Origin: a candidate division WWE3 bacterium
Lineage (GTDB): Bacteria > Patescibacteriota > WWE3 > 2-01-FULL-39-13
Length of the DNA stretch: 64,000 bases
Assembly (NCBI GenBank): GCA_943354835.1
Contig: CALRDH010000002.1
Coordinates: 106,270 to 170,269 of the forward strand
Reading direction: 5' to 3'
Below the pieces are notes generated by a model. It was not told the DNA's origin. It ran no database searches and saw only the letters and a program-made list of their open reading frames with translations. Both the position numbers and the translations under genes were made by a program. Positions 64-19,290 of this stretch are shown here, piece by piece. Numbering within the stretch: the stretch's first letter is position 1; each line of letters starts with the position of its first letter.

Positions 64-747
64 TTATAAAGTCTTACTAATTTTTCCGTCTTTAAGTATT
101 ATCTTTCGGTTTGCAACTTCTGCCAATTCTTCGTCGTGCGTAACTATTACAATTGTTTTTCCTGATTTATTCAATTTACGAAATAGCTCAATAATTTCTG
201 TTCCTGTTTTTGAATCAAGATTTCCTGTAGGTTCGTCGGCCAAAATTAAATCTGGATCATTAATTAAGGCACGTGCAATTGCCACGCGTTGTTTTTGACC
301 TCCTGATAACTCATTTGGCTTATTATTTTTGCGATCTGATAAACCCACAATTTCTAACATTTTTAATGCCCTACTTTCCCATTCTGATTTTGGAACTTGG
401 CTGTATTTTAGTGGCAAAATAATATTGTCTAAAGATGATGTCCTTTGTAATAAATTGAATGATTGAAAAACAAACCCGATAGATCTGTTCCTTTGAAAAG
501 AAAGTTCATTCTGATTTAACCTGCTTACATCTTTATCATTTAAAAGGATGCTTCCTGAAGTTGGAGTATCCAAAAGTCCAATCAAATGCATCAAAGTCGA
601 TTTGCCTGAGCCAGATTTTCCAACGATCGATACAAACTCGCCTTTCTTTATTTTTATATCAACGCCAGAGAGTGCATTTATAACTTCACTCCCTAATCTG
701 TAAGTTTTAAAAACATTTTGTGTTTCGATAATTGTTTGTGTTGGCAC
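64..747 (-). CDS. ABC transporter ATP-binding protein (MacB/LolD-like)
   Basis: Walker A GKSGSGKST, ABC signature LSGGQKQRVAIARAL, Walker B LILADEPTGNLD; a cognate permease would lie upstream of the window. Confidence 0.9.
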   Translation of the reverse strand: MPTQTIIETQNVFKTYRLGSEVINALSGVDIKIKKGEFVSIVGKSGSGKSTLMHLIGLLDTPTSGSILLNDKDVSRLNQNELSFQRNRSIGFVFQSFNLLQRTSSLDNIILPLKYSQVPKSEWESRALKMLEIVGLSDRKNNKPNELSGGQKQRVAIARALINDPDLILADEPTGNLDSKTGTEIIELFRKLNKSGKTIVIVTHDEELAEVANRKIILKDGKISKTL

Positions 748-748
748 C

Positions 749-1819
749 TTATTTTTCTGACATTTTCCCAGGTTTGCCGTCTAAAAGTTCGATTTTTGAA
801 TCAGCTGATGTAATAACCTGTGTCAAACTATCTAGACCTATTACTTCTGTGTATAAATTACCTTCAACACCAATTTCGATATCCATTCTTCGTATAATAT
901 TTCCACTTACGAGTGTCCAAACGTAATTTGAACCATCAGTGTCTGTATATATTGCGTCAAATGGAATTGCATTTACAACGCCTTCTGATTTTTGAATAAC
1001 AACATCGACATCTCCAGTCATGCCGATAAGTATCGGGAGTTCATTATTAGCTTTATCTTCTACTTTAATTTTGATTATAAAACTTCCACTATTTGTTGAA
1101 CCTGTTTCTGCAGAAGCCGGAAGTTCATATACTTTTCCTTCAAATACTTCGTCTGAATATGCATCAAGTGATATGTGGACTGGTTGATCAATTTTAATTT
1201 TGCCAAAATCCTCTTGGTCAATAGCTACTTCAATATATTTCTTTGAAAGATCTGCGACTTGATAGATTGTTTCACCTGCGGACGCGACTTCTCCAACATC
1301 TTTTGTGACATTTAATACAGTTCCTGCAAATGGAGATCTAATTTTTAAATTATCAAGTGAACCGACTGTTGATTGATATGAGCTTTCGGCTTGGCTTATT
1401 AATTCATCATATTTTCTAATTTGAATTTTGTATTCATCGCTGTTATGAAAGTCACTAGAAGAATCTGCGTATGTATCTATATATGCTTCTTTATTTCTGA
1501 TTGCTATGTCTCTTGAATCTTTAGCGCTTTGTGAAGATTGTGCTTGTGGAAATGCGTATATTTGAGCTAAAAGCTGTCCTTTTGAAACTTGTGTACCTTT
1601 TTCTTTGCCTAGATATGATATTTTTCCGGAAGCTGCGAATGCAAGATCGGCTTGATTTTCGGATTTGACAACTCCGCTTGCTGATATTGTGCTTTCGACA
1701 TCAACCTGCTGAATTTCAACAAGGTTAACTGCAATTGGTGACTGCTTTGACCTTATAAAATATATGCTGATAATTAAGATTGCTATTGCAGAAGCAATAT
1801 ATATGTATTTTCTTTTCAT
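749..1819 (-). CDS. HlyD/MacA-like periplasmic adaptor (membrane fusion protein)
   Basis: N-terminal TM anchor, coiled-coil-rich middle and beta-barrel-like C-terminus; start is 1 bp from the ABC ATPase gene. Confidence 0.7.
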   Translation of the reverse strand: MKRKYIYIASAIAILIISIYFIRSKQSPIAVNLVEIQQVDVESTISASGVVKSENQADLAFAASGKISYLGKEKGTQVSKGQLLAQIYAFPQAQSSQSAKDSRDIAIRNKEAYIDTYADSSSDFHNSDEYKIQIRKYDELISQAESSYQSTVGSLDNLKIRSPFAGTVLNVTKDVGEVASAGETIYQVADLSKKYIEVAIDQEDFGKIKIDQPVHISLDAYSDEVFEGKVYELPASAETGSTNSGSFIIKIKVEDKANNELPILIGMTGDVDVVIQKSEGVVNAIPFDAIYTDTDGSNYVWTLVSGNIIRRMDIEIGVEGNLYTEVIGLDSLTQVITSADSKIELLDGKPGKMSEK

Positions 1820-2877
1820 GATTTTTTCGACTTTGTGACTTTGGGCTTAAGAACAAATTTATTCACTATAAGCCCTATCGATGACACTACAATTATAATA
1901 GATAAAGTTGAGCCGATAATTGGCGTCATTGTCAAAATATCTAAAAGCAAAACTCCTGTTATAAGTTGAAGAATTCCAAGCGGTCTTTTTTCAAAAACTT
2001 TTTGACCAAGTGCGATTGCTGGAATTACGTATCCAAAATAACCGACAAATATTGTTAGGAACGCAATAAAAAGCCCAATAGGAATACCTATGATTGATAT
2101 AAAAAGTGCCATTACAATAATAGGGATTAATATGGAACTTGCGACTCCAATTAGAATATTTCGTCCAAAACTTGTTTTATATGAAACTACAATGTCAGAC
2201 AATTTATCTTTGTTGATTTTAAGAAGTATAAGTCCGACTAATATCATGGTTAATGAGTGAAGAATTTTTGAAAGGATTAAATCTGATCTATTTGTGTTTT
2301 CAATATCCTCATCTTTCATTGTTTCTATAACTTGTCCATTTATGAAGGAATTTTCTAGAATTTCTGGTTTTGGTCCGCTGTAATATAAATTACCAATTAT
2401 TTTTCCGGAAATTGTGGAGATTATCTCTGAATCTGTTTGTTCAGGAGCATTTAAGTTAAGACTTTGGCCTATTCTTCCGTCTAGTACTAATTTATTTGTA
2501 AAACCGTATGCGTCTTTTTCTATTTCACCTAATGTTGAGACATAAACGTTGTCAGCAATATATAGTAATGATCCACTAATTGGTGCATTAACAGTAATTT
2601 GTTCTGCAACAATTCGAGCACTGCCTTTTATTGGAGAATTTATAGTGATTTTTTTGCCTATGGCAAAAAAATCACCTGCAATCTCTTTTTCAACAGTAAT
2701 ATTGTCACCGATTACAAAAACATCCGTGTTTTTATTTTCCTGAATTGAAATATCATTTGAAACCTCTATAAAAGGAGCTTCCTTTGAAAGAACTTCAGCA
2801 TTTGCAACATTTGGATTTATGATAAGAAGCAGGGCAATTAGAATCAAGGCGAAATTTGTTTTCATATTAATTTTCAT
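1816..2877 (-). CDS. Exported membrane protein with bactofilin-like (CcmA-type) repeat region and a C-terminal polytopic domain
   Basis: Signal peptide; repeated GD/IGxx beta-helical-type motifs (DVFVIGDNITV...FAIGKKITI...); about 5 C-terminal TM segments; overlaps the adaptor gene by 4 nt. Confidence 0.45.
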   Translation of the reverse strand: MKINMKTNFALILIALLLIINPNVANAEVLSKEAPFIEVSNDISIQENKNTDVFVIGDNITVEKEIAGDFFAIGKKITINSPIKGSARIVAEQITVNAPISGSLLYIADNVYVSTLGEIEKDAYGFTNKLVLDGRIGQSLNLNAPEQTDSEIISTISGKIIGNLYYSGPKPEILENSFINGQVIETMKDEDIENTNRSDLILSKILHSLTMILVGLILLKINKDKLSDIVVSYKTSFGRNILIGVASSILIPIIVMALFISIIGIPIGLFIAFLTIFVGYFGYVIPAIALGQKVFEKRPLGILQLITGVLLLDILTMTPIIGSTLSIIIVVSSIGLIVNKFVLKPKVTKSKKS

Positions 2878-2974: not shown

Positions 2975-4177
2975 ATGTATACAAACATATATACTTTGAA
3001 TACATCTCGTCGAAGATGTATACAAACTATGCAAAACTTTAAAATTGGTTTAGATATAGAACAAAAAGAGGGTTATAAAGCATTTACCCCAAACATATTT
3101 CCACCTATAGGTGGTTTTGATTTTGAACATAAAATTTTAAAAAAGAATAATGAGGCAACTCGATTGCTTGGAAAACTTGATGGTATTACCAAACTACTCC
3201 CGGACGCTGATTTCTTCCTTTTGATGTATTTACGAAAAGATGCAGCTTCTTCAAGTCAAATCGAGGGAACTATGGCCACGATGATTGACGCTATTGAAGC
3301 AGAAATCAAAATTAATACAAACATACCTGACGATGTTGATGATATTTTGCATTACATCAAAGCACTTAATTATGGAATAAGGCGAATGAAATCAGATAAT
3401 TTTCCTATGGCACTTAGATTTATTCGAGAGTTGCATAAGCAATTGATGTCTAAGGCTCGGGCAACTCATTTTTCTGATCCAGGCGAATTCCGCAAAAGTC
3501 AAAATTGGATTGGAGGTACAAGACCAGATAATGCCAAATTTGTACCACCAACTGTTTTTGATATGCATAATGCGCTTAACGATTTAGAAAAGTTTATACA
3601 TTCAGATGATGTTACTCCAACAGTAATAAAAGCTGGATTGATTCATGCCCAATTTGAAACGATTCACCCTTTTTTAGATGGTAATGGAAGAACAGGAAGA
3701 ATGTTAATAACCTTTTATCTTTGGAAGGAAGGCTATTTGGAAAAACCAGTCTTGTTCTTATCGTCTTTTTTTAAGAAACATCAAAAGTTATATTATGAAA
3801 AGTTGTTTGATTATCATAATGGAAATGTATCTGATTGGATAGACTTTTTTCTTGATGGAGTAATTGAAATTGCTAATGAAGCCATTGATATCGTTGGGAA
3901 AATTACTTTTTTGCGATACACCGATACTATGAAAATTCAAAAACTTGGCAAGCGTGCTTCTGAAAGTGCAACAAGTGTCCTACCAAAATTATATGGTCAA
4001 CCAATAGTGAATGTTAATGTAATTCAAGAATGGACGGGGTTCACTCGGGCTGGTGCGCAATCAGTCATCGATAGATTTATTGAGCTTGAGATTTTATCAC
4101 CAAAAGACAAGAATAAGAAATACGGCCAATCATATATTTACAAGGACTACATCGAACTTTTTAGTAGAAAAGATTAA
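2975..4177 (+). CDS. Fic family protein (class II, intrinsic inhibitory motif)
   Basis: Fic motif HPFLDGNGRTGR; inhibitory-helix motif SSQIEG ((S/T)xxxE(G/N)) upstream; C-terminal winged-helix-like tail. Confidence 0.9.
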   Translation: MYTNIYTLNTSRRRCIQTMQNFKIGLDIEQKEGYKAFTPNIFPPIGGFDFEHKILKKNNEATRLLGKLDGITKLLPDADFFLLMYLRKDAASSSQIEGTMATMIDAIEAEIKINTNIPDDVDDILHYIKALNYGIRRMKSDNFPMALRFIRELHKQLMSKARATHFSDPGEFRKSQNWIGGTRPDNAKFVPPTVFDMHNALNDLEKFIHSDDVTPTVIKAGLIHAQFETIHPFLDGNGRTGRMLITFYLWKEGYLEKPVLFLSSFFKKHQKLYYEKLFDYHNGNVSDWIDFFLDGVIEIANEAIDIVGKITFLRYTDTMKIQKLGKRASESATSVLPKLYGQPIVNVNVIQEWTGFTRAGAQSVIDRFIELEILSPKDKNKKYGQSYIYKDYIELFSRKD

Positions 4178-4305: not shown

Positions 4306-5934
4306 ATGATATTAGATAAGATTCGAGAAAACTTAAAATCAGGTTTGACTGTTTCACTTATTTCTATACCTCTATCGGTATCATTAGCTGTTTCATCTGG
4401 AGTAACTCCAGTAGTCGGTATTATGACAGCAATTTGGGCTGGTATTATTGCCGCCATTTTTGGGGGAAGCAATTTTAATATTGTAGGTCCAACTGGCGCA
4501 CTTTCGGGAATAATTGCAGCATATGTGATTTTGCATGGTATGACCGGACTTCCGATTGTTGCAGTTCTTGTTGGAATTTTTATTTTAATTGCGTATGTTT
4601 TGAAATTAGAACGATATCTTATTCTTATTCCATCAAGTGTTATACATGGATTTACACTTGGAGTCGCCTTTATTATTGGTTTAGGACAGTTTAATTTTGC
4701 CTTCGGTCTAAAAAATCTTCCAGCACACGAGAGTCTTTTATTGAATATGTTTGAATCCGTTAAACATATTGGAAGTAGTTCTGTTTTAACCCTTTTTGTA
4801 TTTTTGATGTTTCTTATTGGCCTTTTAATGTTTAAGAAATTTACACCAAAACTTCCAGGAGCTATTATTCTTGCGCCAATTGGAATTTTAACTGGCTATT
4901 TAAGTGAAAGATCGATTATTCCTGTTGTTTTACAAACTTTAGGTAGTAAGTTTGGCGAAATCTCATTTCATTTTTTTGAAATTCCACATTTTCAATTTAC
5001 TTTTGACATGATCGAGACAGCAGCTGTTATTGCTCTTGTTGCGATTTTAGAAACTTTGCTTTCAGCAAAGATTGCAGATGGTATGACAGCAACAAAGCAT
5101 AATGAAAGAAAAGAAATGTTAGGACTTGGTCTGGCAAATATTGTTTCTGGATTAGTTGGTGGTATGCCAGCAACTGCAGCTTTGGCTCGTACTTCTCTTA
5201 ATATTAAAACTGGTGCAACGCATAAAACTTCAGCAATTATAAGCTCAATTTGTATTGCGATAATTTCAGTTATTTTCCTTTGCTATTTTAAGTACATTCC
5301 TTTAGCTGTTATTGCTTCGATTTTAGTTTATGTTGCGATTCAAATGGTCGAGCAGGAACATTATAAAAAGCTTTGGAAGTATGAAAGATTTGGCTTTTAT
5401 GTTTCTATTTTTGTTGCTATTGTGACGATTGTTATTGATCCAATTACTGGAATTCTTTTTGGTGTGTCAGTATCGCTTCTTGCTTTTGTTGACCGAATTT
5501 CTAAAGGTCACTTTGAGGCACATGTAAATAAATTTGAAGCTGGAATTGTTGATACCGTTTCTGGAGTTGATATAAGTGAAATTAAAGAAGATGGTGATGT
5601 TTTAGTTTATTCATTCAAGGGAAAGTTGTGCTACATAAATAGCCGTTCTCATCTTGGACGTTTTGAAGCTAATTTTAAAAAATATAAGTCAATTATTTTA
5701 AGGTTGCGCGAAGTCTACTTTATAGACGCGGATGGAATCGAAGCGCTTGATGAAATAATCGATATTGTAGAAGCAAGAGGACAAAAAGTACTATTATCTG
5801 GAATTAGCCAAAACACAAAAGACTTACTAGAGCAGTTATCATCTGGTTACAAAAAAATAAAAGCAAAGGGATTAATATTCGAAAAATCTGAACAAGGGTT
5901 AATTCATCTGGGAGTGAAGACTAGGAACCAATAA
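4306..5934 (+). CDS. SulP family anion transporter with C-terminal STAS domain
   Basis: About 11 TM helices, then an anti-sigma-antagonist-like region (FIDADGIEALDEI). Confidence 0.85.
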   Translation: MILDKIRENLKSGLTVSLISIPLSVSLAVSSGVTPVVGIMTAIWAGIIAAIFGGSNFNIVGPTGALSGIIAAYVILHGMTGLPIVAVLVGIFILIAYVLKLERYLILIPSSVIHGFTLGVAFIIGLGQFNFAFGLKNLPAHESLLLNMFESVKHIGSSSVLTLFVFLMFLIGLLMFKKFTPKLPGAIILAPIGILTGYLSERSIIPVVLQTLGSKFGEISFHFFEIPHFQFTFDMIETAAVIALVAILETLLSAKIADGMTATKHNERKEMLGLGLANIVSGLVGGMPATAALARTSLNIKTGATHKTSAIISSICIAIISVIFLCYFKYIPLAVIASILVYVAIQMVEQEHYKKLWKYERFGFYVSIFVAIVTIVIDPITGILFGVSVSLLAFVDRISKGHFEAHVNKFEAGIVDTVSGVDISEIKEDGDVLVYSFKGKLCYINSRSHLGRFEANFKKYKSIILRLREVYFIDADGIEALDEIIDIVEARGQKVLLSGISQNTKDLLEQLSSGYKKIKAKGLIFEKSEQGLIHLGVKTRNQ

Positions 5935-6571
5935 TTCTATAATGTCCGATTATTTCCCAGGTAAATAAAACATCCTCGAGTTGTGGTCCGCGTCCTGCAT
6001 TGTGAACAATTAAGTATCTTTGAGAGGTTAAATCAAATGCGTTCACAACAAGTCCTGTATGGACTCTGCCATTTGCAAATCTCCAGACTACTACATCACC
6101 TGGAATATAATCATTAGCATCATCTGTTACAGGCAGATCATAGTTTTTCCTTTGAAAATATGTTTGCAAATTTGGAACACGCCTATGGTCAATATTCTTA
6201 TCAGGTGCGGTTAAACCCCAGAGATTTGGATACACTTTAAAATTCGACGACATATCTTCGTGAATTTCTTTTTGTAAATCTATATCGATGTCTCTAAATG
6301 CCCTAATTATTACATCTGAACAGACTCCAACGTTCGCTGGAACATCTCCGTTTGGATAATCAATATCATAATAAGCAGGGTCGTATGTAACGGCACTTTT
6401 GGTTTGGTTGATTGTTGATTCTACAAGTGTTTTTATAGTTGGATTTTCGACTGTATTGTAGACTATGTTTTGGCTTGAGATATTAGTTAAGGACTTTAAT
6501 TTTACAAAAAAAACGCTAATTGGAATTGCGAATAACAAAAATAAAATTAGTAAAAGGGATTGAACTTTCAT
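5921..6571 (-). CDS. DUF1287-like membrane-anchored protein
   Basis: N-terminal TM; C-terminal region DVVVWRFANGRVHTGLVVN...IVHNAG typical of DUF1287; convergent 14-nt overlap with SulP. Confidence 0.55.
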   Translation of the reverse strand: MKVQSLLLILFLLFAIPISVFFVKLKSLTNISSQNIVYNTVENPTIKTLVESTINQTKSAVTYDPAYYDIDYPNGDVPANVGVCSDVIIRAFRDIDIDLQKEIHEDMSSNFKVYPNLWGLTAPDKNIDHRRVPNLQTYFQRKNYDLPVTDDANDYIPGDVVVWRFANGRVHTGLVVNAFDLTSQRYLIVHNAGRGPQLEDVLFTWEIIGHYRIIGS

Positions 6572-6573
6572 AA

Positions 6574-9500
6574 TTATTTATTTTTAGCTGTTCTTTTTTT
6601 TCGAATCAAGATGAATAGCAAAATTATAATAAGTATTGGAGTTCCAATAAATAATACGTAAATAACTTTTTGCTTAACGGAGGTGGATTCATTAGGTATT
6701 TTATTTGTTTGTTGTACTTGGGTTGTTTCAATTTTAACCGAGTTTAAATCTAAAGCGTTTTTACCATCAACTGTAAATGTTTCTGCAGTAGTTGACGCCC
6801 AGGTAGATGGATCGCTATTTAATTTCACTACAGCAGGTGGAACATTAAAAGTGCCATCTGATAATACGCGTGCTTTGTATTTGTAAACATATGTGCCAGA
6901 TAAGTTCCATGTAGAGAAATTTAGTTTAATTCCTTGATCTGTAATTTTGTGAGAAGCTGTTCTATCGGTTTGTCCAGGGATATCATCAAAGTTACCATTG
7001 TCTAGGCTTTGATCAATGGCCATTAGTCCAGCAGGTAAGTAATCTACTATTTCAACATTGTCTTCACCTAAACCTAGTCCGTCAATTTGTAATTGAACAA
7101 TAATTAAATCACCAATTTCTATTGGTTTTTTATTAATGTTTGTAGATAAATATTTTCTTGTAATTTCTAGATCGTTATTTTCCGCTGGATGTGATTTATC
7201 AATTACAAACTCTTTTTGAACTAATGCGCTATTAAGTTGACCATTGCCATTTTTTTCAATAATTATTTTTGAATTTGAATCGAATAATGATGCCGGAACT
7301 TTTACTGATTTTAATTGTTGCTGTGTACTTGATACCGTTCCTGTTGCTAAAACCTTTTGGTCAGCAATTACTTTATATGAATAATTTGGATTTATTTGAT
7401 CGGTATCTTGAAAGTATTTAATAATTGTTAAAAGTGTTAGTGCTTGAATTTCAGGTTCTGATTGAGGGTTTCTGTAAAGATAATCTAAAGCCTTTTCTAT
7501 ATCTATTGTTTTTGACCCAATCTGTTGTGAAGCATATACAGCCCATGCTGTTGGTCCTAAAATAATGTATTTTTGACTATTATTTGGTTTGACGTATATG
7601 CCCCTCCATGCCAATTGATTGTTAGTTGAATATGCGATTTCTGGTAATCTACTTTCTGCTTCTTTAGATATATCAAAACCTTGTCTTTTGTTAGCAATTA
7701 AGGCTCGTGAAATATATTCTGGATCTTTTGAAGAAGTTATATCTAATGCATGGCTATTTTGTTTTTTATCAGGAAATAGGGAAAGAGTGTACTGTTGTAA
7801 AAGATCTATCTTTGCCGAGGATTTATTTTGTTTGTAAATATAACTTAGCGTCTTATCAATAAAACTTTGATCAATTTCGTAGCCTGCTTTTCTCGCGATA
7901 GATATTGACTCTAAAATAAATATTGTTGCGTCAATGTCTATTGTGTTTATTGTCTGATTAATCCAATAGCCATTTGGATCTTGGTTATCTTTAAGAGAAT
8001 CGATTGCAGTCTTAACTTCTTGGTTAAGTTCATTTTGATTAAAATAAATTCCAAGGTCTTTGCCATTTTGCTTTAGCAAACTAGCTGCAATTAAAGTTGC
8101 AGCGTTGTCATAAATTGAACCACTGTATTGATTATTCACCAATGGGAGCAAAATTTTATCTATCTCATTATAACGACTGGCTTTGAGTTCAATACTTGAT
8201 TCGAGACGTTTACTATCCGTGCCACTTGTTGGGTTTAAAGAAAAACTTGCAGAATCAGTTTTTTTATCTATTTGTGTTTGCCAAGATCCATATTCATATA
8301 TTGGAAACTTCTCAATTGCATTATCTATCAAGTTACGATTATTTTGTCCTTGTGATTTAACGTTAAAGATAGCATTTTCGTTCATGCCAGTAATCTTTGT
8401 GGGAAATTTAATTTCCTGTATATCATTTGTATCTACTACAATTTGTTGTATCGATGATGACATATCGCCACCTGAAAGTTTTGCTTCTACAGAAAAATTG
8501 TCCTGATTTTTCGAAAAATTATTTATTAAAGCCGATAGAGTTAGCTGATCGCCAGTTCTTGCAAACATTGGAAATATTGGTCTAACAACGAAATCTTTTG
8601 TAACGATAAATTCGGTTTGGCCGGTACCAACTTGAGTCTTATCATTAGCAGTTATTGCAGCAGCCACCCAGGTAGTTAAATTGTCTGGTAGTGTAATTGT
8701 TACAGATGCTTTTCCGTCTTCGCCTGTAGAAATATTGGGGTTCCAGTAAGCAGTATCTTTATATTGTGAACGTGAATTATCTTTATCATTGTGAACATAA
8801 ATATCATTTGCAAAAAACGTATGAAAATTTTCGATTGCTAAGTTGTATACATCAAAATTTCCTCTTATCCATTCAATTGAATAAACTTCTAATCTAGTTT
8901 TATCGGATTTAAGCAGTGAATCACCAATATTAATTTCTCCTGCAGGAATCCATTTATTATTAACAAATAAAATATGTTCCGGAGTTATTTTAAATGAACT
9001 ATTTATAATCATGTATCCATCAACCTTTACAGCATGTGTTCCGGTCACCATTGCTGCTGCTTTTTCCTTAGTGCTAGTAGATCTGAATGTTTGAATTAAA
9101 TCGCCTTTAGCTACTTCATCTATTCTCTTTTTACTACCGTCAGACATGGTTATTAATGTATCGCCAGCAAAACAACCGCCTCCGCCTCCCCCTCCGTCAT
9201 TACTTGAAATTCCTTGATATGAATAATTTGTGGAAGTACTAAAACTTCTCTTATACCAAAAATTTTCATAAACACGATCAAACGAATTGTTATGTAATTC
9301 CAGTAATGCTTTATCAAAGACCCAAAATGCCATATCTGTTTTTATTAGGTTGCCATTACTATCTTTAGCAGTAATATCAAACTGAGCAGTTTCCCCAGGC
9401 TTGAAGGTTTTTTGTGATGGATCAATAGATACGAAAACTTTTTTATCATTAGTATCGACAGGAATATCTAAAGTAGATTTTTTCCATGATTCATTTAGGA

Positions 9501-11670
9501 AAGTTCCTGTAAATACAAAAATATTAGGTTGGTGGTTTTCAAGTATATCGAATTCAAAAGATGCTAAACCATTTGAAGCATTTAAGACACTAACATCTTT
9601 GCTATATTCCCTTCCAATTGAAACGAAAATATTTTTAATTTCTGGAATTGTTTTTATGTTGATTTTTGCTTTATCACCGATTTTATAATTTTCTTTGTCT
9701 GACGTAATAGTAAATATTTCTGTATATTTATTATTAGCAGTTTTACTTATATAAAATTCTTGATTAAGGAGTATTAGATTTCCACCTTTATCTTTTGTTT
9801 CTAATTGAAGTTTGTAATATCCAGCTAACCCAGCAGTAAAGCTTATCTTGAATTTTCCATTATTGTCAGAAACAGCAGTTAAACCATCAATTATTTTTGT
9901 GTCTATGTCGTTCTCTTTTTTTAGAAGAGTTCCCGTAATCTTGTGACCATTAAGATTAACACCAGGAATATTTTGATTTAACTTATAAGAGTTTTTGATT
10001 GTAGTATTTTCTACTTTGTCCTGATTGTCTACTTCCGGTTCAATTATAAAATCTCCAGGATTAATTAAAGTCTTAATTGCGCTATTTGCTGTTGTACTTA
10101 AGCTGTCTAAATATTCTGTTTCAATAACCCAAAATTGTCTTTCTCCAGTATTATTCAGGGCAGTCAATTGTATTTCTGCTTGACCCTTTTTATCTAGTGC
10201 TACCGTACCTGTGCCTTGTTTGATTTCTAAATCTTTAGAAAAATAGTTTTCTTCTTGGCTATTGTATTTTGCATTTAAATAATCGCCGAATATCCATGCT
10301 TTGTACTGATAAATTTTGTACCTAATTTCTTTATTACGTAGAGGTTGGCCAAGAAATGCAGTACCTGAAAATTTCAGAATAACACTTTCACCAGGCTGAT
10401 ACATTAATTTATCTGTAGTTACAGTTATAGATGCGTCGGGTTTCCTGAAATTGGCAACCTGAAGCCCAGTATAACTTATATGATCATCACGATCTTTAAT
10501 TAATATTTCGTAATATCCAGGCTCAATATCAGCAGGGATTTGAATATCAGCATTAATTGTGCCGTTGGGTAATAGTTCTAGATTTTTTTCAATGATTATA
10601 TTTTCGTAAGTTCCAAATGAAATCTGATAGGTTTTTGTTTCAATTGAGTAATCTGCGTCATCATCTTTTCTTATGATTGCTTTAAAATGTGCTATATCAC
10701 CCGGTTTATATAAAAAGCGATCTGTGAACGCGAAGGATCTAGTGTTGGGTTCTCTAGTAGAAAAACTTGAATAACCCCGCGCAGAGTTGTAATTTAGATT
10801 AGATAGATTTACTGGAATTAGTGTTAAATCTTTATCTTTAGAAACTATAGCGAAATCAATTGCACTGTTAATATCGTTAACTGCTAAACCTCTATCATCA
10901 GTATTTAAACTTTCCAATTTTGAAATCTTTTTGTTGCTATTATATAAATCAATATTTGCATCATTAACAGAAGTGTAATTGGTGTCTTGTATCCAAAAAA
11001 TGTTTTCATTATCACCTTTATGAATAATTCCAGATAAGTTTGTGCGAATCAACATTGTTTCTGATTTTCCGCCGTTGACCTCACCTCTTAGAAACCAAAT
11101 ACCAATATCTTCTAGTGGTAAGTTTATTGGGTTTGATTCATATGTATCTTTATTATAGGTAACTTGTTGTTGAAAAGTTTTATCTACGGGAATAGAAGTA
11201 GTATCAAACTTATATAACTTCTCAATTTGATTTCCCCAACTATTATCTTCAATTACTTTGTATACTAAGTAATTTAGAAGATCTGATTTCGTAACTTTAT
11301 ATAAAGTAAAAGTACCTAGTCCAACTGTAGTTTTACTATTTTCTACTTTTATCGTTGATGGCGTTTTGGCACTAAGTACAATAACTCCTCCATTTGAACC
11401 ATAATTGTCTGAACCAGAAAAACTAAATTCAGTTGATTTTTCAAGAACCTTGCTAATAGATTGCGTAGTGTTATCAAGAGGTGCCTCTATTGGAGTAGAT
11501 GGATTGTTAATAATAAAATTTTCTGGCACATCCTGGCTTATCTGTTTATTAAGTGATTGGTATCTAATAACAAAAAAAGTAAAAACAGCTATGAAAGTGA
11601 ATAGTAAAATAGCAATAGGTCTTTTATTAATTGGAGCAATTTGCTTCACAAAACTCAGAATAACATGCAA
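6574..11670 (-). CDS. Giant alpha-2-macroglobulin-like surface protein with inserted Hint/BIL domain
   Basis: 1698 aa; N- and C-terminal TM anchors, C-terminal basic tail IRKKRTAKNK; Ig/MG-like repeat region; LPDNLTTW resembles the A2M PDSxTTW motif; internal Hint domain CFAGDTLITM...TPEH...VYNLAIENFHTFFANDIYVHN preceded by a Gly7 linker. Confidence 0.65.
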   Translation of the reverse strand: MHVILSFVKQIAPINKRPIAILLFTFIAVFTFFVIRYQSLNKQISQDVPENFIINNPSTPIEAPLDNTTQSISKVLEKSTEFSFSGSDNYGSNGGVIVLSAKTPSTIKVENSKTTVGLGTFTLYKVTKSDLLNYLVYKVIEDNSWGNQIEKLYKFDTTSIPVDKTFQQQVTYNKDTYESNPINLPLEDIGIWFLRGEVNGGKSETMLIRTNLSGIIHKGDNENIFWIQDTNYTSVNDANIDLYNSNKKISKLESLNTDDRGLAVNDINSAIDFAIVSKDKDLTLIPVNLSNLNYNSARGYSSFSTREPNTRSFAFTDRFLYKPGDIAHFKAIIRKDDDADYSIETKTYQISFGTYENIIIEKNLELLPNGTINADIQIPADIEPGYYEILIKDRDDHISYTGLQVANFRKPDASITVTTDKLMYQPGESVILKFSGTAFLGQPLRNKEIRYKIYQYKAWIFGDYLNAKYNSQEENYFSKDLEIKQGTGTVALDKKGQAEIQLTALNNTGERQFWVIETEYLDSLSTTANSAIKTLINPGDFIIEPEVDNQDKVENTTIKNSYKLNQNIPGVNLNGHKITGTLLKKENDIDTKIIDGLTAVSDNNGKFKISFTAGLAGYYKLQLETKDKGGNLILLNQEFYISKTANNKYTEIFTITSDKENYKIGDKAKINIKTIPEIKNIFVSIGREYSKDVSVLNASNGLASFEFDILENHQPNIFVFTGTFLNESWKKSTLDIPVDTNDKKVFVSIDPSQKTFKPGETAQFDITAKDSNGNLIKTDMAFWVFDKALLELHNNSFDRVYENFWYKRSFSTSTNYSYQGISSNDGGGGGGGCFAGDTLITMSDGSKKRIDEVAKGDLIQTFRSTSTKEKAAAMVTGTHAVKVDGYMIINSSFKITPEHILFVNNKWIPAGEINIGDSLLKSDKTRLEVYSIEWIRGNFDVYNLAIENFHTFFANDIYVHNDKDNSRSQYKDTAYWNPNISTGEDGKASVTITLPDNLTTWVAAAITANDKTQVGTGQTEFIVTKDFVVRPIFPMFARTGDQLTLSALINNFSKNQDNFSVEAKLSGGDMSSSIQQIVVDTNDIQEIKFPTKITGMNENAIFNVKSQGQNNRNLIDNAIEKFPIYEYGSWQTQIDKKTDSASFSLNPTSGTDSKRLESSIELKASRYNEIDKILLPLVNNQYSGSIYDNAATLIAASLLKQNGKDLGIYFNQNELNQEVKTAIDSLKDNQDPNGYWINQTINTIDIDATIFILESISIARKAGYEIDQSFIDKTLSYIYKQNKSSAKIDLLQQYTLSLFPDKKQNSHALDITSSKDPEYISRALIANKRQGFDISKEAESRLPEIAYSTNNQLAWRGIYVKPNNSQKYIILGPTAWAVYASQQIGSKTIDIEKALDYLYRNPQSEPEIQALTLLTIIKYFQDTDQINPNYSYKVIADQKVLATGTVSSTQQQLKSVKVPASLFDSNSKIIIEKNGNGQLNSALVQKEFVIDKSHPAENNDLEITRKYLSTNINKKPIEIGDLIIVQLQIDGLGLGEDNVEIVDYLPAGLMAIDQSLDNGNFDDIPGQTDRTASHKITDQGIKLNFSTWNLSGTYVYKYKARVLSDGTFNVPPAVVKLNSDPSTWASTTAETFTVDGKNALDLNSVKIETTQVQQTNKIPNESTSVKQKVIYVLFIGTPILIIILLFILIRKKRTAKNK
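8788..9184 (-). other. Hint / bacterial intein-like (BIL) domain inside the giant protein
   Basis: Block A CFAGDTLI, block B TPEH, block G NFHTFFANDIYVHN; +1 residue is Asp, not Cys/Ser/Thr. Confidence 0.75.
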
Positions 11671-11702: not shown

Positions 11703-11787
11703 TGGTGCCGAGGAGAGGACTTGAACCTCCATCCCTTTTGAGGACTAGCTCCTAAAGCTAGCGTGTATGCCATTTCACCACCTCGGC
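11703..11787 (-). tRNA. tRNA-Leu(TAG)
   Basis: Cloverleaf folded by hand; acceptor GCCGAGG/CCTCGGC; anticodon loop TTTAGGA; long variable arm; CCA encoded. Confidence 0.85.
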
Positions 11788-11825: not shown

Positions 11826-14036
11826 CTACTTATTAATTTCTGGTAAGAAAATACTTTTTACTGAAGCGTTATCTCCGTTTTCGTTTGCATTTGGATCAGA
11901 AATTTGAACAGTGAAACTTCCGCTGGTATAAGGCTTCACACCGTTATTATTGTTGTCAAAGTCTCTTGTGACTATAGTTGCCACTGCATCAACGCCTTCT
12001 GGAGCCTTGAACTTGTGTTGGGTTGCAATTTTGGATTGATCATACTGATCATAATCACCACCATTTTCCATCGGAAAAAGCCATTCTGTACCATAGGCAT
12101 TATATCCAGACTCTGCTGGTGGATCATCAATAGAGCGATCCCAGATTATATCACCATCTTTATTAATTAATCCTAGTTTTACTACTGCTCTATCGCCGAT
12201 TGCAGGTGTTGTACTTGTAACTGATAAGCTACTTCCACCTTTTATTTTAAAATAAATACCAGCAGATGTTGGACTAGAATTTGTGGAGGCTAATTGTACT
12301 TGGTATTCTCCGGGTTTTTCAGGAGGCAGATTTTTTTCAGAAATCATAGGATTTGGAAGTAAATGATCCCCCAAATCTATTGTTCTTCCATCTGGCAATG
12401 ACATTATCATTCGTACTTGTTCTGTTGGATCGTATGCTAAACGTGGGAGGTTCAATAAGATAATTCCATTTTCTTCTCTTGCGCCCAAATCAAAATCCCG
12501 ATTATCAATTTTGCTAATAATTGTTACGTCAGATAGTGGCACTCCTAAAACTATTACACCATTTTGTAACGATGGCTCAGGTATTAAGTCTGAAAAGCTT
12601 TTATTTATTGCGATTTGGCCATAACCAGTTAATGGAGTTGCTTGAGATATTTGATAATCAATATCGACACTTGTAGGAATTTCAATTGCTGATCTTTTGT
12701 CTGTTTCTAGATTAAATGAAGTCTGACCGATTTGAAATGCAGCTGAAATTATATTGTCATTAGGGTCATCGTTTTTGGGGACGCTAAATTTTGCAGTATG
12801 GTTTGGTGGACATATGCCGACGACTTCACCTTCGAGGATTATTTCTTGTTCTAAACCACTGTTATTTGAAACGAATACAAATGGTTCTCCATTAGTGCCA
12901 ATTTCTAAACTTGCAGAACTCTCAACTGTTGAATCAGACATCTTAATTCCTGATCGTTGTATAACATCAGCCGATATAGCATCAAAATCAACTGGTTTAG
13001 ATATCTGGTGAATTATTGGCGTATAAGTGTTTAAGCCAGGTCTCATTCTTCTGTATGCTAGTCCAAATTCTTTATTAAATTCTGCCGATATAAATAGTGA
13101 GTTCATTGTGGCTTGTGGATCGTTTATTAGGTGTCTTGCAAATCTTTCTGTAAGATTATTATTGGCAGGTGTTAAGGCAAATCTGCTGGTTGCTGTAATA
13201 ACTGATAAATCCAAAAATTCAGAACTATCAGCACTAAGATACTGGTTGAGCCGTAAGAATATGTTTTCGTTTAATATATTAGGATCAATTTTATCCGTTT
13301 CATCTGCTTCTCTTGTAATTGTTCCGCCGCTGTAACATGAATCAACAAGTAGGCTTAAATTACATCTTTCAAGGTTTCCTGCTTTAGTCCTATTATTCAT
13401 GCCTTCGGCTATTGCGTCTGCGATTCTTTCTGTAGATAAAGTAATCTTATGGCGATTATCTCCGTCAGCGAGAATTAATTGCCATGAATCGCTCTTCTCA
13501 TCAATATATCCATGTCCGATTAAGTGAATAAATTTATCTGTTGACCCGCTTGATACAATTTCAACAATTTTTCTACATGCCAGCTCTAGCGCGTCTGTAT
13601 CAGCATTTGCTTCTAAGGTATCAGCAGGATCGCTAGGGTTTGAATATTTACTTAATTTATCATCAACCCAAGCACAAGTAGATATATCCAGTCCTAGTTT
13701 GTACATGTACATATCTTGCAGTTCGACCAAAGCCTCATCAATAAATACTTGTTCTCTGTTGCCTCTTCCGCCAATGAAAAGGACTTCAGGTTTTGAATCG
13801 CCGAGAATTTCGAGGGATGTTGGAGCTTCGCTTTCTCCTGAAACTGCTGCAGCAGTAGGAACGGCATTACCAGGAACTCCTAAAGCACTAAGTAGAGTCG
13901 CTGCACCTGCAACACCAGCAAGTCGTAAAAAGCCCCTTCGGGATATCTGGCTTGGGTTTTGTGTTGGTTCAACTGGAGTTGGAGGTAGAATGCTTGTAAT
14001 TTCTGTTTCCGGAGTTAAATTCGACGGATTTTCCAT
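11826..14036 (-). CDS. TAT-secreted clan-CD (caspase-fold, C11/C13-like) cysteine peptidase
   Basis: Twin-arginine signal SRRGFLRLAGVAGAA; catalytic His in FIHLIGHGY and Cys in LLVDSCYSGG; large beta-rich C-terminal region. Confidence 0.6.
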   Translation of the reverse strand: MENPSNLTPETEITSILPPTPVEPTQNPSQISRRGFLRLAGVAGAATLLSALGVPGNAVPTAAAVSGESEAPTSLEILGDSKPEVLFIGGRGNREQVFIDEALVELQDMYMYKLGLDISTCAWVDDKLSKYSNPSDPADTLEANADTDALELACRKIVEIVSSGSTDKFIHLIGHGYIDEKSDSWQLILADGDNRHKITLSTERIADAIAEGMNNRTKAGNLERCNLSLLVDSCYSGGTITREADETDKIDPNILNENIFLRLNQYLSADSSEFLDLSVITATSRFALTPANNNLTERFARHLINDPQATMNSLFISAEFNKEFGLAYRRMRPGLNTYTPIIHQISKPVDFDAISADVIQRSGIKMSDSTVESSASLEIGTNGEPFVFVSNNSGLEQEIILEGEVVGICPPNHTAKFSVPKNDDPNDNIISAAFQIGQTSFNLETDKRSAIEIPTSVDIDYQISQATPLTGYGQIAINKSFSDLIPEPSLQNGVIVLGVPLSDVTIISKIDNRDFDLGAREENGIILLNLPRLAYDPTEQVRMIMSLPDGRTIDLGDHLLPNPMISEKNLPPEKPGEYQVQLASTNSSPTSAGIYFKIKGGSSLSVTSTTPAIGDRAVVKLGLINKDGDIIWDRSIDDPPAESGYNAYGTEWLFPMENGGDYDQYDQSKIATQHKFKAPEGVDAVATIVTRDFDNNNNGVKPYTSGSFTVQISDPNANENGDNASVKSIFLPEINK

Positions 14037-14793: not shown

Positions 14794-14879
14794 TGGTGCC
14801 GAGGAGAGGACTTGAACCTCCATTCGCTTGCGCGAACAGCCTTCTGAAGACTGCGTGTCTGCCATTTCACCACCTCGGC
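14794..14879 (-). tRNA. tRNA-Leu(CAG)
   Basis: Same acceptor/T-arm backbone as the other Leu tRNAs; anticodon loop TTCAGAA; long variable arm; CCA encoded. Confidence 0.85.
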
Positions 14880-14928: not shown

Positions 14929-15246
14929 ATGATTAGTATGAAGTTACATCCCCCACCGGGGGACTGCACTTTGTTCAAAAAAATTATGATGCACGATAAG
15001 TCAAAAATATTACACAGAATTAAGATTATTAAAGGCCATATTTCAGCAATTGAAAAAATGATTGAAGATGATCGTTATTGTTTAGATGTCGTTCATCAGT
15101 CTCAAGCAGTTCAAAAAGCTTTAAAGAATCTTGATGGACTGTTAATTACAGATCATATTAATCATTGTGTAGTAGAGCAAGCTAAGTTAAATGAGTATGA
15201 GAAGATTGCATCCGAGTTAATTAAAATATATGAATTCAAACAATAA
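14929..15246 (+). CDS. csoR: CsoR/RcnR-family metal-sensing transcriptional repressor
   Basis: DUF156-like helical protein with conserved YCLDVVHQ and HINHC ligand positions; sits directly upstream of copper genes; true start may be an internal Met near 14985. Confidence 0.7.
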   Translation: MISMKLHPPPGDCTLFKKIMMHDKSKILHRIKIIKGHISAIEKMIEDDRYCLDVVHQSQAVQKALKNLDGLLITDHINHCVVEQAKLNEYEKIASELIKIYEFKQ

Positions 15247-16603
15247 ACCCAATAAGCACAGTAAAACTTTTTATGTCGAAGGCATGCATTGTAATGCATG
15301 TGAGATGTTAATTAAGCAAGATATTTCAAGCTTAGATGGCGTTTCGAATGTTGATGTTTCGCAAGCGGACTCTTGTGCAGTTGTTACGGCAGATTCACAA
15401 AAAAAGATTCCAGGTCTTTCTGAACTTAATGCAAAGTTTAAAGATTCCGGATATAAATTTTATGACTCAAAAGCCAGCATTTCCAAATTAAGTAAACAGG
15501 ATTTTTATTTGGCATTATCAGCTTCTATCATATTTATCATTTTATTCATCGCTTTAGAAAGGTCTGGCGTTACAAGCAAAATTTCTTTAAGCGGAGAAAG
15601 CGGAGACTTTGCATTTTTTTCATATTTCTTATTCGGCCTTGCAGCAGGAATTTCAAGTTGTGCTGCTCTTGTTGGTGGCCTTCTACTTTCACTTTCCAAA
15701 AAATGGGAGAAAAGTTTATATCCGTTTATTCTATTTAATTCTGCAAGGCTAATTGCTTTTGCTGTTTTTGGTGGAATTTTAGGATTTATAGGAAGTGCGA
15801 TTTCGATTTCAATTGGTGTTACAAGTTTCATCGCAATACTAATTGCAATATTTATGTTATTTATTGGTCTTCAAATGTTAGGTGTTAAAGGCTTTAAAAA
15901 TATTTCACTAAATAACTTTATTAAGATTCCATATTTAGATAAGAATCAGGATTTTAAAGGTAAATATATGCCGATAATTGTTGGTGCGGCTACTTTCTTT
16001 GTTCCATGCGGATTTACAATGATTGCCCAAACTACAGTATTAACATCTGGAAGCGCAATATCAGGTGCAATAAATTTATTTGCATTTGCACTAGGAACCT
16101 TGCCTGTTTTAGCCATAATAAGTTTTTCAAGCGTAAAAATATATGCGAATCAAAAATTTTCACGACAGTTTAATATATTTGCTGGTGCTTTAATTGTATT
16201 TTTTGCATTGTATTCGCTTAACTCTCAACTAAATGTTTTGGGGCTCAAAAGTTTAAATGATATAAAAAAGAGTCCTGTGCAAAGTAAACAAAGCACTAAA
16301 ACAAAAACTCCAAGTACCTCTGTTGTCGATGACTCCAAGCAATCAATCGAAATGGAAGCTTCTGGTTTTGAATATTTCCCAAAACAGTTCACTATAAAAT
16401 CTGGTTTAAAAACAAGATGGGATATTTTTGAAAACGATGCAGTTGGATGCGCAAAAGCCGTATATGCAAGAGGATTATACAAAGACATAATTTATTTGAA
16501 ACCAGGTATGAACTCGGTTAGCTTTATCGCACCAGAGCCCGGAACGTATAAAGTTTCGTGCTCGATGGGTATGGTTGATCCAGTTTATGTGAAAGTAATA
16601 TGA
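15230..16603 (+). CDS. HMA-domain / CcdA-MerT-like membrane / cupredoxin-like fusion protein
   Basis: N-terminal heavy-metal-associated motif GMHCNACEM; polytopic membrane domain with TM cysteines (SSCAAL, FVPCGF); C-terminal beta-sandwich resembling plastocyanin (YKVSCSMGMVDP) but with Met in place of the His ligand. Confidence 0.55.
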   Translation: MNSNNKPNKHSKTFYVEGMHCNACEMLIKQDISSLDGVSNVDVSQADSCAVVTADSQKKIPGLSELNAKFKDSGYKFYDSKASISKLSKQDFYLALSASIIFIILFIALERSGVTSKISLSGESGDFAFFSYFLFGLAAGISSCAALVGGLLLSLSKKWEKSLYPFILFNSARLIAFAVFGGILGFIGSAISISIGVTSFIAILIAIFMLFIGLQMLGVKGFKNISLNNFIKIPYLDKNQDFKGKYMPIIVGAATFFVPCGFTMIAQTTVLTSGSAISGAINLFAFALGTLPVLAIISFSSVKIYANQKFSRQFNIFAGALIVFFALYSLNSQLNVLGLKSLNDIKKSPVQSKQSTKTKTPSTSVVDDSKQSIEMEASGFEYFPKQFTIKSGLKTRWDIFENDAVGCAKAVYARGLYKDIIYLKPGMNSVSFIAPEPGTYKVSCSMGMVDPVYVKVI

Positions 16604-18873: not shown

Positions 18874-19290
18874 TTAGGAGAATGGGTTTATAACTTCAAT
18901 TTCCTTAAATTTTAGAAAATCTTTTGGGTTGTTTGTGTAAATTGTCGAAACGCAGTAATCAATCATGTGTGCTACAAGGTTTGCATCATAAATTCCATAT
19001 GACTTTACTTTATATTTGTTGATTAAGGTTTCAAGTACATCAATGGTGGATGATCTTGTTGTAAGAACTTTGAATTGTTCTTTTAGTTTATTTATTTCTT
19101 TCCATGCAGTTTGAGGAGTAAATGTGTTCGTGTAAATCTCGAATGATGTTATAACTCTAAATGTTTCGATTATGTTTTGATTTGTAATACAAGCATTTGG
19201 CATATCGATGAGCTCACGGGATTTTTTGTAATATTTCGATTTATCGTCAAATGCATAAATCAGGATGTTGCTATCAAATAATTTCATCAT
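18874..19290 (-). CDS. PIN-domain toxin (VapC-like)
   Basis: Starts FDSNILIYAFD; 138 aa; overlaps the upstream RHH gene by 17 nt. Confidence 0.65.
   Translation of the reverse strand: MMKLFDSNILIYAFDDKSKYYKKSRELIDMPNACITNQNIIETFRVITSFEIYTNTFTPQTAWKEINKLKEQFKVLTTRSSTIDVLETLINKYKVKSYGIYDANLVAHMIDYCVSTIYTNNPKDFLKFKEIEVINPFS

Follow-up and report, generated by a model that had tools for sequence, protein, structure and literature searches.

A Hint domain resembling type A bacterial intein-like domains in the bait loop of alpha-2-macroglobulin homologues, mostly from Patescibacteria

Type A bacterial intein-like (BIL) domains have a Cys or Ser nucleophile, a C-terminal His-Asn pair and no nucleophile at position +1 (PMC4031507). 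They form an N-terminal thioester and cleave via Asn cyclisation; cleavage products predominate, and ligation can follow from attack of the freed amine on the thioester (PMC4031507, PMC7664689). Alpha-2-macroglobulins (A2Ms) are protease traps controlled by a bait region. In human A2M, where the bait spans residues 690-728 (PMC8267569), the native state is held by the backbone connectivity of this region, and cleavage that preserves connectivity triggers no change (PMC9352918). Activation of the bacterial homologue ECAM is driven by the untethering of the cleaved bait (PMC4498604). Here we describe a gene that combines the two modules. It lies in a stretch of 64,000 nucleotides from a candidate division WWE3 bacterium (GenBank assembly GCA_943354835.1, contig CALRDH010000002.1, positions 106,270 to 170,269; hereafter the window) and encodes an A2M homologue of 1698 amino acids with a Hint domain inserted in its bait loop, an architecture that we call A2M-Hint.

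The Hint and A2M modules are each well known; what is new is a fixed, deeply conserved Hint in the A2M bait loop, and our literature searches brought up no paper in which a Hint, BIL or intein is connected with alpha-2-macroglobulin. With the type A BILs (Amitai et al. 2003; Dassa et al. 2004; PDB 2LWY) the domain shares Cys1, TxxH, His-Asn and the lack of a +1 nucleophile, a length of about 130 aa without endonuclease, an exported host and the fold. The described examples reside in variable or toxin-like secreted proteins, whereas A2M-Hint occupies one fixed bait-loop site in a large, vertically inherited family. It is further distinguished by a conserved [D/Q/E]-K-G after the domain.

On the side of the host, E. 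coli ECAM (YfhM), Salmonella SaA2M (type I, CLEQ) and Pseudomonas MagD (type II) have the set of MG2, BRD, A2M and bMG10 domains in common with the window protein. As in A2M-Hint, their bait loop lies in the MG8-equivalent MG domain, with a conserved Arg (Arg956 of ECAM). The window A2M-Hint is thioester-less, like type II MagD. It differs from the described bacterial A2Ms in the Hint of its bait loop and in predicted transmembrane (TM) helices, one at each end, that take the place of a lipobox.

A Hint domain at the C-terminal end of the bait loop

The open reading frame (ORF) of the A2M-Hint gene begins with TTG (Table 1). Public gene calls use an alternative start, the GTG at 11649, giving 1691 aa, and P0001, found on public contigs, is the identical protein called from this GTG. 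Pfam domains of the A2M family lie on both sides of the Hint, all above their cut-offs (MG2 at aa 312-396, A2M_BRD, A2M and bMG10), and the scaffold can be aligned to ECAM, human A2M and complement C5. The layout reads SYQGISSND-GGGGGGG-CFAGDTLITMSDG...KITPEHILF...NFHTFFANDIYVHN-DKDNSRSQYKDTAYWNP...LPDNLTTW, with the last motif at aa 994-1001. Downstream of the Hint, A2M, TED-like and bMG10 regions are followed by a TM helix. The 1698-aa protein has no CxEQ thioester motif and no TED Pfam match, and its sole cysteine is Cys833; the thioester of the Hint is therefore the only one possible for this protein.

The Hint (aa 833-961; CFAGDTLI...TPEH...NFHTFFANDIYVHN, then DKDNSRSQYKDTAYWNP) was identified by several comparisons. 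In Pfam, PT-HINT (PF07591) matched with E=1.3e-8 and a score of 35.6 bits (cut-off 27.7), and Vint with 28.9 (cut-off 27). A first-pass annotation, made from the letters of the window, had named the Hint and Intein_splicing families together with A2M/MG domains as the profiles to search for; PT-HINT, Vint and the A2M/MG domains scored above their cut-offs, and Hint and Intein_splicing below theirs. In a PDB sequence search, the matches of aa 830-971 were Hint domains of toxins, BIL2 of Tetrahymena, a bacterial intein-like domain and an intein. Modelled with AlphaFold2, the Hint with short flanks had a predicted local distance difference test (pLDDT) score of 87-98 over aa 833-961. With this model, Foldseek gave 65 PDB matches at E<=1e-3, and the best 50 of the 65 are all Hints, inteins or BILs. 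The top one is Tetrahymena BIL2 (6tmm/6y75, E=1.5e-12); the Clostridium thermocellum BIL 2lwy superposes with a TM-score of 0.85 and a root mean square deviation of 1.8 Å, and the DnaB and gp41-1 mini-inteins are among the top structural neighbours. The block is a genuine Hint, with a resemblance far beyond chance. Thus the complete mini-Hint module that had been proposed inside an A2M-family protein is there; the span first given for it, 8788-9184, takes in the Hint (8788-9174) and about three Gly codons as well.

By its sequence the domain is of the type A BIL kind, with Cys1, TxxH, a terminal His-Asn and a non-nucleophile at +1, and the matches to BIL2 and the C. thermocellum BIL bear out, at the level of sequence and fold, the BIL-like arrangement suggested earlier. 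BIL2, from the BUBL1 polyubiquitin-like locus of Tetrahymena thermophila (6TMM/6Y75), is the best match to A2M-Hint both in structure and in PDB sequence, and the segment that precedes it ends in Gly-Gly, as in A2M-Hint. The thioester of BIL2 is resolved by a lysine epsilon-amine, yielding isopeptide conjugates (PMC8616854). Such lysine chemistry would fit the conserved Lys963 of A2M-Hint. BIL2 is, however, eukaryotic, cytoplasmic and flanked by ubiquitin-like domains, none of which is present in A2M-Hint, and the identity between them is 26-28%. The best-scoring Pfam family, PT-HINT of polymorphic toxins, sits just upstream of the C-terminal toxin that it releases, whereas A2M-Hint has about 735 aa of A2M scaffold and no toxin domain. 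Hedgehog HhC (1AT0) shares the Hint fold, the G-CF junction and a thioester at a C-terminal Gly that is resolved by an external nucleophile; it lacks the terminal Asn step, has a sterol-recognition region and is a far weaker structural match (E 1e-5).

The site of insertion, only touched on in the first-pass annotation, turned out to be the key point. We deleted the Hint and aligned a profile of the region from BRD to MG with known A2Ms. The C-flank (R-S-x-F-K-D-T-A-Y-W) aligned to human A2M from residue 730 onward and to C5 from residue 765 onward, and the N-flank (DKALLEL) to C5 around residue 614. In C5, the stretch between these flanks carries a chain-processing site and the anaphylatoxin domain. 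In ECAM, translated from K-12 yfhM, the insertion point falls between G948-G949 and D950, directly after the disordered bait R923-L942. These three alignments place the Hint at the C-terminal end of the bait loop, the site of the human A2M bait and of the C3/C5 anaphylatoxin domain. The invariant Arg967 pairs with ECAM Arg956, which contacts the C-terminal MG domain once the bait is cleaved (PMC4498604). The Gly7 run before the Hint ends in Gly832, the predicted thioester-bearing residue; its Gly codons are mixed, so the run is not a slippage tract. In P0031, a Hint-less, thioester-bearing A2M, an unrelated insertion of about 150 aa occupies the same bait-loop position in the alignment, which indicates that the bait loop tolerates other inserted segments.

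Complement C3, C4 and C5 offer a parallel to this arrangement, as they too have a folded domain and chain-breaking sites at the homologous (MG6) loop. Cleavage on the C-terminal side of their inserted domain frees the alpha'NT segment and leads to conformational change. Complement relies on furin and the convertases for these cuts, and its insert is a helical anaphylatoxin, whereas in A2M-Hint the insert itself is the predicted cutting enzyme.

The hydrophobic helices suggest that the protein is exported and membrane-anchored at both ends. By eye, an N-terminal hydrophobic stretch can likewise be read in the sequences of homologues, the Hint-less P0012 and P0016 among them, and the C-termini of the homologues consist of a TM helix and a Pro-rich tail.

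Conservation of the Hint and its host

The Hint-bearing A2Ms recovered by a full-length search range in identity from 57% to about 25%. The names of these relatives at NCBI are automatic, for example 'polymorphic toxin-type HINT domain-containing protein' (Candidatus Woesebacteria). Queried with the Hint segment by itself, a word-index search retrieved no more than 4 small Hint proteins and none of the A2Ms. It was replaced by an exhaustive phmmer scan, again with just the Hint as query, covering 1.84 billion cluster representatives (50%-identity clusters) at E<=1e-3. It gave 8209 matches, and among the best 150 of these, 91 are A2M-like proteins with a single Hint, 42-69% identical. The other 59 of the best 150 have 2-12 tandem Hints at 30-39% identity. 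The tandem-Hint proteins (a subset of P0072-P0216, e.g. P0073, P0076 and P0078) are built of head-to-tail units joined only by K-G-G, with junctions of the form ...VHN-KGG-CF..., and Pfam detects multiple Hint/Vint/PT-HINT units in P0073 and two in P0077. This Hint subfamily is thus characterised by a Lys directly after His-Asn.

A scan of GTDB species genomes left 41 loci with a single Hint inside an A2M ORF. Most are labelled Patescibacteria (Saccharibacteria, WWE3, Daviesbacteria, Collierbacteria, Peribacteria, Parcubacteria, Uhrbacteria and others), and one Hint-bearing A2M protein is labelled Bipolaricaulota. Thirteen loci (L003, L007, L009, L011, L017, L022, L024, L027, L028, L031, L033, L036 and L037) come from metagenome-assembled genomes labelled Gammaproteobacteria, Pseudomonadales, Nevskiaceae or Bathyarchaeia. 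Their A2M-Hints are 36-78% identical to those labelled as candidate phyla radiation (CPR), up to a 'Pseudomonadales' protein that is 78% identical over 1742 aa to one from Collierbacteria, and both groups have the same synteny with a Memo-like gene (see below). For these reasons the non-CPR taxon labels of these loci are probably wrong.

Conservation was assessed in 142 distinct A2M-Hints. Gly832, Cys833, Phe834, Thr896, His899, His960 and Asn961 are invariant, Gly831 is found in 137 of the 142, and the length of the Hint is constant at 127-130 aa. The Asp after His-Asn that had been noticed earlier is Asp962. At this +1 position the relatives have Asp (52), Gln (47) or Glu (27), together 126/142; the rest have Gly, Ala, Asn or Lys and in a few cases Ser, never Cys or Thr, so that about 137/142 lack a nucleophile there. 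Since a class 1 intein requires Cys, Ser or Thr at +1, the earlier view that canonical splicing is unlikely agrees with these counts. Position +2 is Lys in 134/142 and position +3 Gly in 122/142. The residues of the N- and C-terminal junctions are both conserved, which argues that both reactions are in use.

The Hint is more conserved than the protein around it. Identity to the window protein is, for Hint and host respectively, 68 versus 47%, 42 versus 28% and 40 versus 20%, and the two identities are correlated with r=0.91 (136 pairs). The GC content of the Hint DNA and its GC content at third codon positions (GC3) are 0.310 and 0.194, against 0.316 and 0.203 in the rest of the gene, and thus give no sign of recent acquisition. 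Judged from these comparisons, the Hint is inherited vertically with its A2M host under strong constraint, which does not fit the hypervariable host that a BIL reading had implied. A CxEQ motif (GCxEQ) is kept in 56 of 99 Hint-bearing members and is absent from the window clade.

The Hint is precisely missing in P0012 (thioester-less window clade) and in P0016 and L062 (thioester clade), where the site reads GGGGGG-ADRS, GGGGGGG-DSNGNRS and GGPEMGGGGGSTR, respectively. In a rough neighbour-joining tree built without the Hint columns these proteins are nested among Hint-bearing ones. This implies three or more precise losses of the Hint, unless one assumes, less parsimoniously, that it was gained repeatedly at the same site. 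Short Gly-rich bait loops also occur in many outgroup bacterial A2Ms. The Gly7 run is hence the bait loop itself, and its initial description as a linker of the Hint had to be abandoned, as Hint-less A2Ms have the same Gly-rich loop. The [D/Q/E]-K-G, by contrast, is not present in the Hint-less relatives and therefore belongs to the Hint module.

Table 1. Features of the A2M-Hint gene and its surroundings, in window coordinates
Feature	Position	Strand	Basis
A2M-Hint gene	6574..11670	(-)	ORF list, translation, Pfam MG2, A2M_BRD, PT-HINT, A2M, bMG10
N-terminal hydrophobic helix, aa 17-35, predicted signal anchor	11566..11622	(-)	Kyte-Doolittle scan
A2M bait-region domain A2M_BRD, aa 654-792	9295..9711	(-)	Pfam E=5.6e-14; aligns to ECAM residues 757 onward
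N-terminal arm of bait loop, aa 800-832, ending in Gly7 run	9175..9273	(-)	Aligns to ECAM disordered bait R923-L942 and G948-G949 (PMC4498604)
Gly7 run GGGGGGG, aa 826-832	9175-9195	(-)	Translation
Hint / type A BIL-like domain, 129 aa, aa 833-961	8788..9174	(-)	PT-HINT, Vint, AlphaFold2, Foldseek
Cys833, Hint Cys1 nucleophile (predicted)	9172..9174	(-)	Only Cys; 142/142
Block B motif TPEH, Thr896 and His899	8974..8985	(-)	Both 142/142
C-terminal His960-Asn961 (block G), Asn961 predicted to cyclise	8788..8793	(-)	Both 142/142
+1 to +3, Asp962-Lys963-Asp964 (family consensus [D/Q/E]-K-G)	8779..8787	(-)	Residue counts over 142 sequences
C-terminal arm of bait loop, alpha'NT-like NSRSQYKDTAYWNP, aa 965-978	8737..8778	(-)	Invariant Arg967; aligns with C5 765 onward, human A2M 730 onward
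A2M (MG) domain, aa 973-1062, including LPDNLTTW	8485..8754	(-)	Pfam A2M E=6.3e-19; aligns to C5, C3, human A2M
Bacterial MG10 (C-terminal MG) domain, aa 1505-1616	6823..7158	(-)	Pfam bMG10 E=1.1e-10; matches ECAM residues 1411-1601
C-terminal hydrophobic helix, aa 1667-1690, and basic tail, predicted membrane anchor	6601..6672	(-)	Kyte-Doolittle scan
DUF1287 gene	5921-6571	(-)	E 9e-65
Gene of 736-aa protein	11826-14036	(-)	
tRNA-Leu	11703-11787	(-)	
tRNA-Leu	14794-14879	(-)	
Copper or heavy-metal module	14929-18870	(+)	
MacB-type ABC transporter components and HlyD-like adaptor	64-2877		
Fic/DOC protein	2975-4177		
PIN-domain protein	18874-19290		

Proposed self-excision and its alternatives

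The reading that we favour, with roughly even confidence, is that A2M-Hint carries a catalytically competent type A BIL-like Hint of the PT-HINT family, vertically inherited in the bait loop of a membrane-anchored bacterial A2M, mostly of Patescibacteria/CPR, and that this Hint excises itself. After export and folding, Cys833 would attack the Gly832 carbonyl in an N-S acyl shift assisted by Thr896 and His899, giving a thioester between Gly832 and Cys833. Asn961, helped by His960, would cyclise and cut the Asn961-Asp962 bond. As there is no Cys, Ser or Thr at +1, no branched ester intermediate would form, and we propose that the Hint would therefore leave by double cleavage. The backbone of the bait loop would then be broken and an alpha'NT-like N-terminus (DKDNSRSQYKD...) freed. 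In A2Ms the loss of bait-loop continuity sets off the conformational change and normally needs an attacking protease; the Hint may thus provide a protease-independent maturation or triggering, with two chains as the outcome, each with its own membrane anchor. Part of the protein may be re-joined, if the thioester is attacked by the alpha-amine of Asp962 or the side chain of Lys963. The data establish which domain this is, that it lies in the bait loop, that all its catalytic residues are conserved, that it has co-evolved with its host and that this protein has no canonical CxEQ thioester; we infer from there that the Hint chemistry takes place, when or by what it is set off, and what it does to the trap. 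The bait loop, nearly all Gly, is likely to be a poor protease substrate; a (GGS)13 bait gave correctly folded A2M, and these repeats had been picked for low susceptibility to proteolysis (PMC8267569).

Several points weigh against self-excision. Since splicing is also within the reach of type A BILs, the loop may be fully re-ligated and the A2M may be ordinary and uncleaved. Constitutive, unligated self-cleavage would discharge the trap in those 56 of 99 members that keep CxEQ, and a trigger or a ligation step would be needed. The nested Hint-less P0012, P0016 and L062 show that the scaffold can manage without a Hint. The tree in which they are nested is a rough neighbour-joining one, and the flanks of the AlphaFold2 Hint model, on which the geometry between Lys963 and the thioester rests, are of low confidence.

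Efficient re-ligation is accordingly the main rival, possible in our view although we lean against it. The Hint would remove itself, and the loop would be re-ligated by type A BIL aminolysis, with the alpha-amine of Asp962 or the epsilon-amine of Lys963 as the attacking group; maturation would leave an ordinary, continuous A2M with a short Gly-rich bait (GGGG-DKxxxR), equivalent to the Hint-less relatives, and the Hint would persist mainly as only its precise deletion is tolerated. The loop of the Hint-less P0012 and P0016, both nested in Hint-bearing clades, is exactly what a ligation would yield, conserved chemistry at both junctions is a requirement of splicing, and the retained CxEQ trap of the majority is compatible with it. 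The conserved Lys at +2 (+1 in the tandem-Hint relatives) would suit a nucleophile-free ligation, type A BILs are capable of splicing (PMC4031507), and BIL2 makes Lys isopeptide bonds (PMC8616854). In the type A BILs that have been tested, however, cleavage outweighs the spliced product (PMC4031507, PMC7664689). The +1 residue has also not reverted to Cys, Ser or Thr, though such single mutations turn BILs into efficient splicers (PMC7664689). Moreover, the Hint is better conserved than its host, and the great bulk of the lineage has kept it, even at host identities as low as about 20%, a retention beyond what is expected of a neutral passenger without homing endonuclease.

The Gly832-Cys833 thioester might also be put to another use. 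We think it unlikely, arguing by analogy, that A2M-Hint has a second, protease-independent thioester chemistry in which a lysine amine resolves this thioester, either in cis by Lys963, giving an isopeptide-stapled two-chain trap, or in trans by a lysine of a captured protein, with the Hint of the thioester-less clade taking over covalent capture from CxEQ. If true, this would be a self-arming protease trap made of two unrelated thioester machines. Taken as an alternative in its own right, the trans reaction seems quite unlikely: an external amine, from a lysine of the captured protease or from the envelope, would couple the N-terminal A2M fragment covalently to its target, as BIL2 does in Tetrahymena BUBL, and the Hint would replace the CxEQ warhead in the thioester-less clade. 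The best structural match points this way, since BIL2 conjugates the C-terminus of the preceding domain to lysines of several substrates without ATP (PMC8616854). The N-extein ends in Gly-Gly like ubiquitin-like domains (G831 137/142, G832 142/142), the window protein has a single Cys and no CxEQ, and classic A2M function includes covalent capture via a thioester (PMC4498604). The Gly-rich loop is older than the Hint, however, and the strictly conserved terminal Asn is not needed for trans-conjugation. Simple replacement of CxEQ by the Hint is also weakened, as more than half of the Hint-bearing A2Ms have both.

An inert Hint fold, serving only as a structural plug or display domain like the anaphylatoxin of C3/C5 while an external protease cuts the flanking linker, is very unlikely. 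Folded domains do occur in the same loop of C3, C4 and C5, P0031 has its unrelated insertion there, and Lys963 and Arg967 beside the domain are possible protease sites. Against this, the catalytic residues are all conserved in 142/142 while most other positions vary, and the catalytic Cys is the sole Cys of an exported 1698-aa protein. Degenerate Hints usually lack Cys1 or the terminal Asn. Least probable of all, to the point that we discount it, is a recent invasion of the gene by a canonical, mobile class 1 intein. The size is that of a mini-intein, blocks A, B, F and G are present, mini-inteins are structural neighbours, Intein_splicing matches weakly, and occupied and empty alleles exist at one site. 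The +1 residue, Asp here and in the relatives never Cys or Thr and rarely Ser, excludes a canonical intein, and the 129-aa domain has no homing endonuclease. Recent insertion is rejected on the same residue together with a composition equal to that of the host gene and the co-divergence with the host, and the host is an exported protein of a non-essential type, not a replication or repair enzyme.

Genomic neighbourhood and implications

In the relatives, the gene directly downstream of A2M-Hint often encodes a TM-anchored Memo-like protein (PF01875), sometimes fused to PGA_cap, which was present in 25 of the 37 loci with enough sequence (among L002-L041, L082 and L083, e.g. L041:5471-6373 and L027:10256-12022). 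It often overlaps A2M-Hint stop to start, and in L062 it also adjoins the Hint-less A2M. The window has no Memo-like gene. An extracytoplasmic function (ECF)-type sigma-70 factor gene lies directly upstream of A2M-Hint in L016, L018, L020, L024, L025, L026, L034 and L040 (e.g. L016:4266-4817). The known A2M operons (yfhM-pbpC and yfaS/magABCDEF) are not matched by the window, which has no pbpC, unlike the E. coli reference; the neighbour typical of this family is the Memo-like gene.

In the window, the A2M gene and a DUF1287 gene overlap, stop codon to start, which gives the pair an operon-like look; the DUF1287 protein had no relative in the PDB sequence search. Upstream of the A2M gene, beyond a tRNA-Leu, is the gene of a 736-aa protein with a twin-arginine translocation (TAT) signal. 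This protein has an HLIGHG...LLVDSCYSGG (HG...DSC) pattern and a weak match (E=0.23) to the TcdB cysteine protease domain, which hint at a clan-CD-like protease at a level short of significance. No other Pfam domain was found in it even at E<=10, no homologues were detected, and its single-sequence AlphaFold2 model (pLDDT 37) is unusable. The 736-aa gene and the gene upstream of it (233 aa as called on L081) lie between two tRNA-Leu genes, and the Rfam matches in the window are tRNAs only. The tRNA-Leu between the A2M and 736-aa genes makes a simple operon of the two unlikely. The 736-aa protein and the DUF1287 gene are both absent from all of 80 related loci and from the annotation read for two orthologue contigs. 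We therefore reject a functional pairing of A2M-Hint with either of them, and the unusual envelope system of a self-cleaving A2M and a TAT-secreted clan-CD protease, suggested in the first-pass annotation, finds no support, its supposed partner being an orphan. Other genes of the window encode a copper or heavy-metal module (a CsoR-like repressor, Trns_repr_metal; an HMA-DsbD_2 fusion; and an HMA P-type ATPase), components of a MacB-type ABC transporter with an HlyD-like adaptor, a Fic/DOC protein and a PIN-domain protein (Table 1).

All members of the A2M family, from bacterial ECAM to human A2M and C3, rely on an outside protease that cuts one loop. The architecture described here suggests an undescribed, self-triggered or self-ligating version of the A2M trap. 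If its Hint is active, this would be the first A2M with an autocatalytic trigger or maturation, and it would give BIL/Hint domains a new physiological role beyond toxins, Hedgehog and ubiquitin-like conjugation. It would also offer a natural system in which to learn how the connectivity of the bait loop controls the conformational switch of A2M, and possibly a compact extracellular self-processing module (129 aa, single Cys) for protein engineering. The surface biology of Patescibacteria is largely uncharted, and a Hint in the A2M bait loop appears to be a widespread feature of their envelope.

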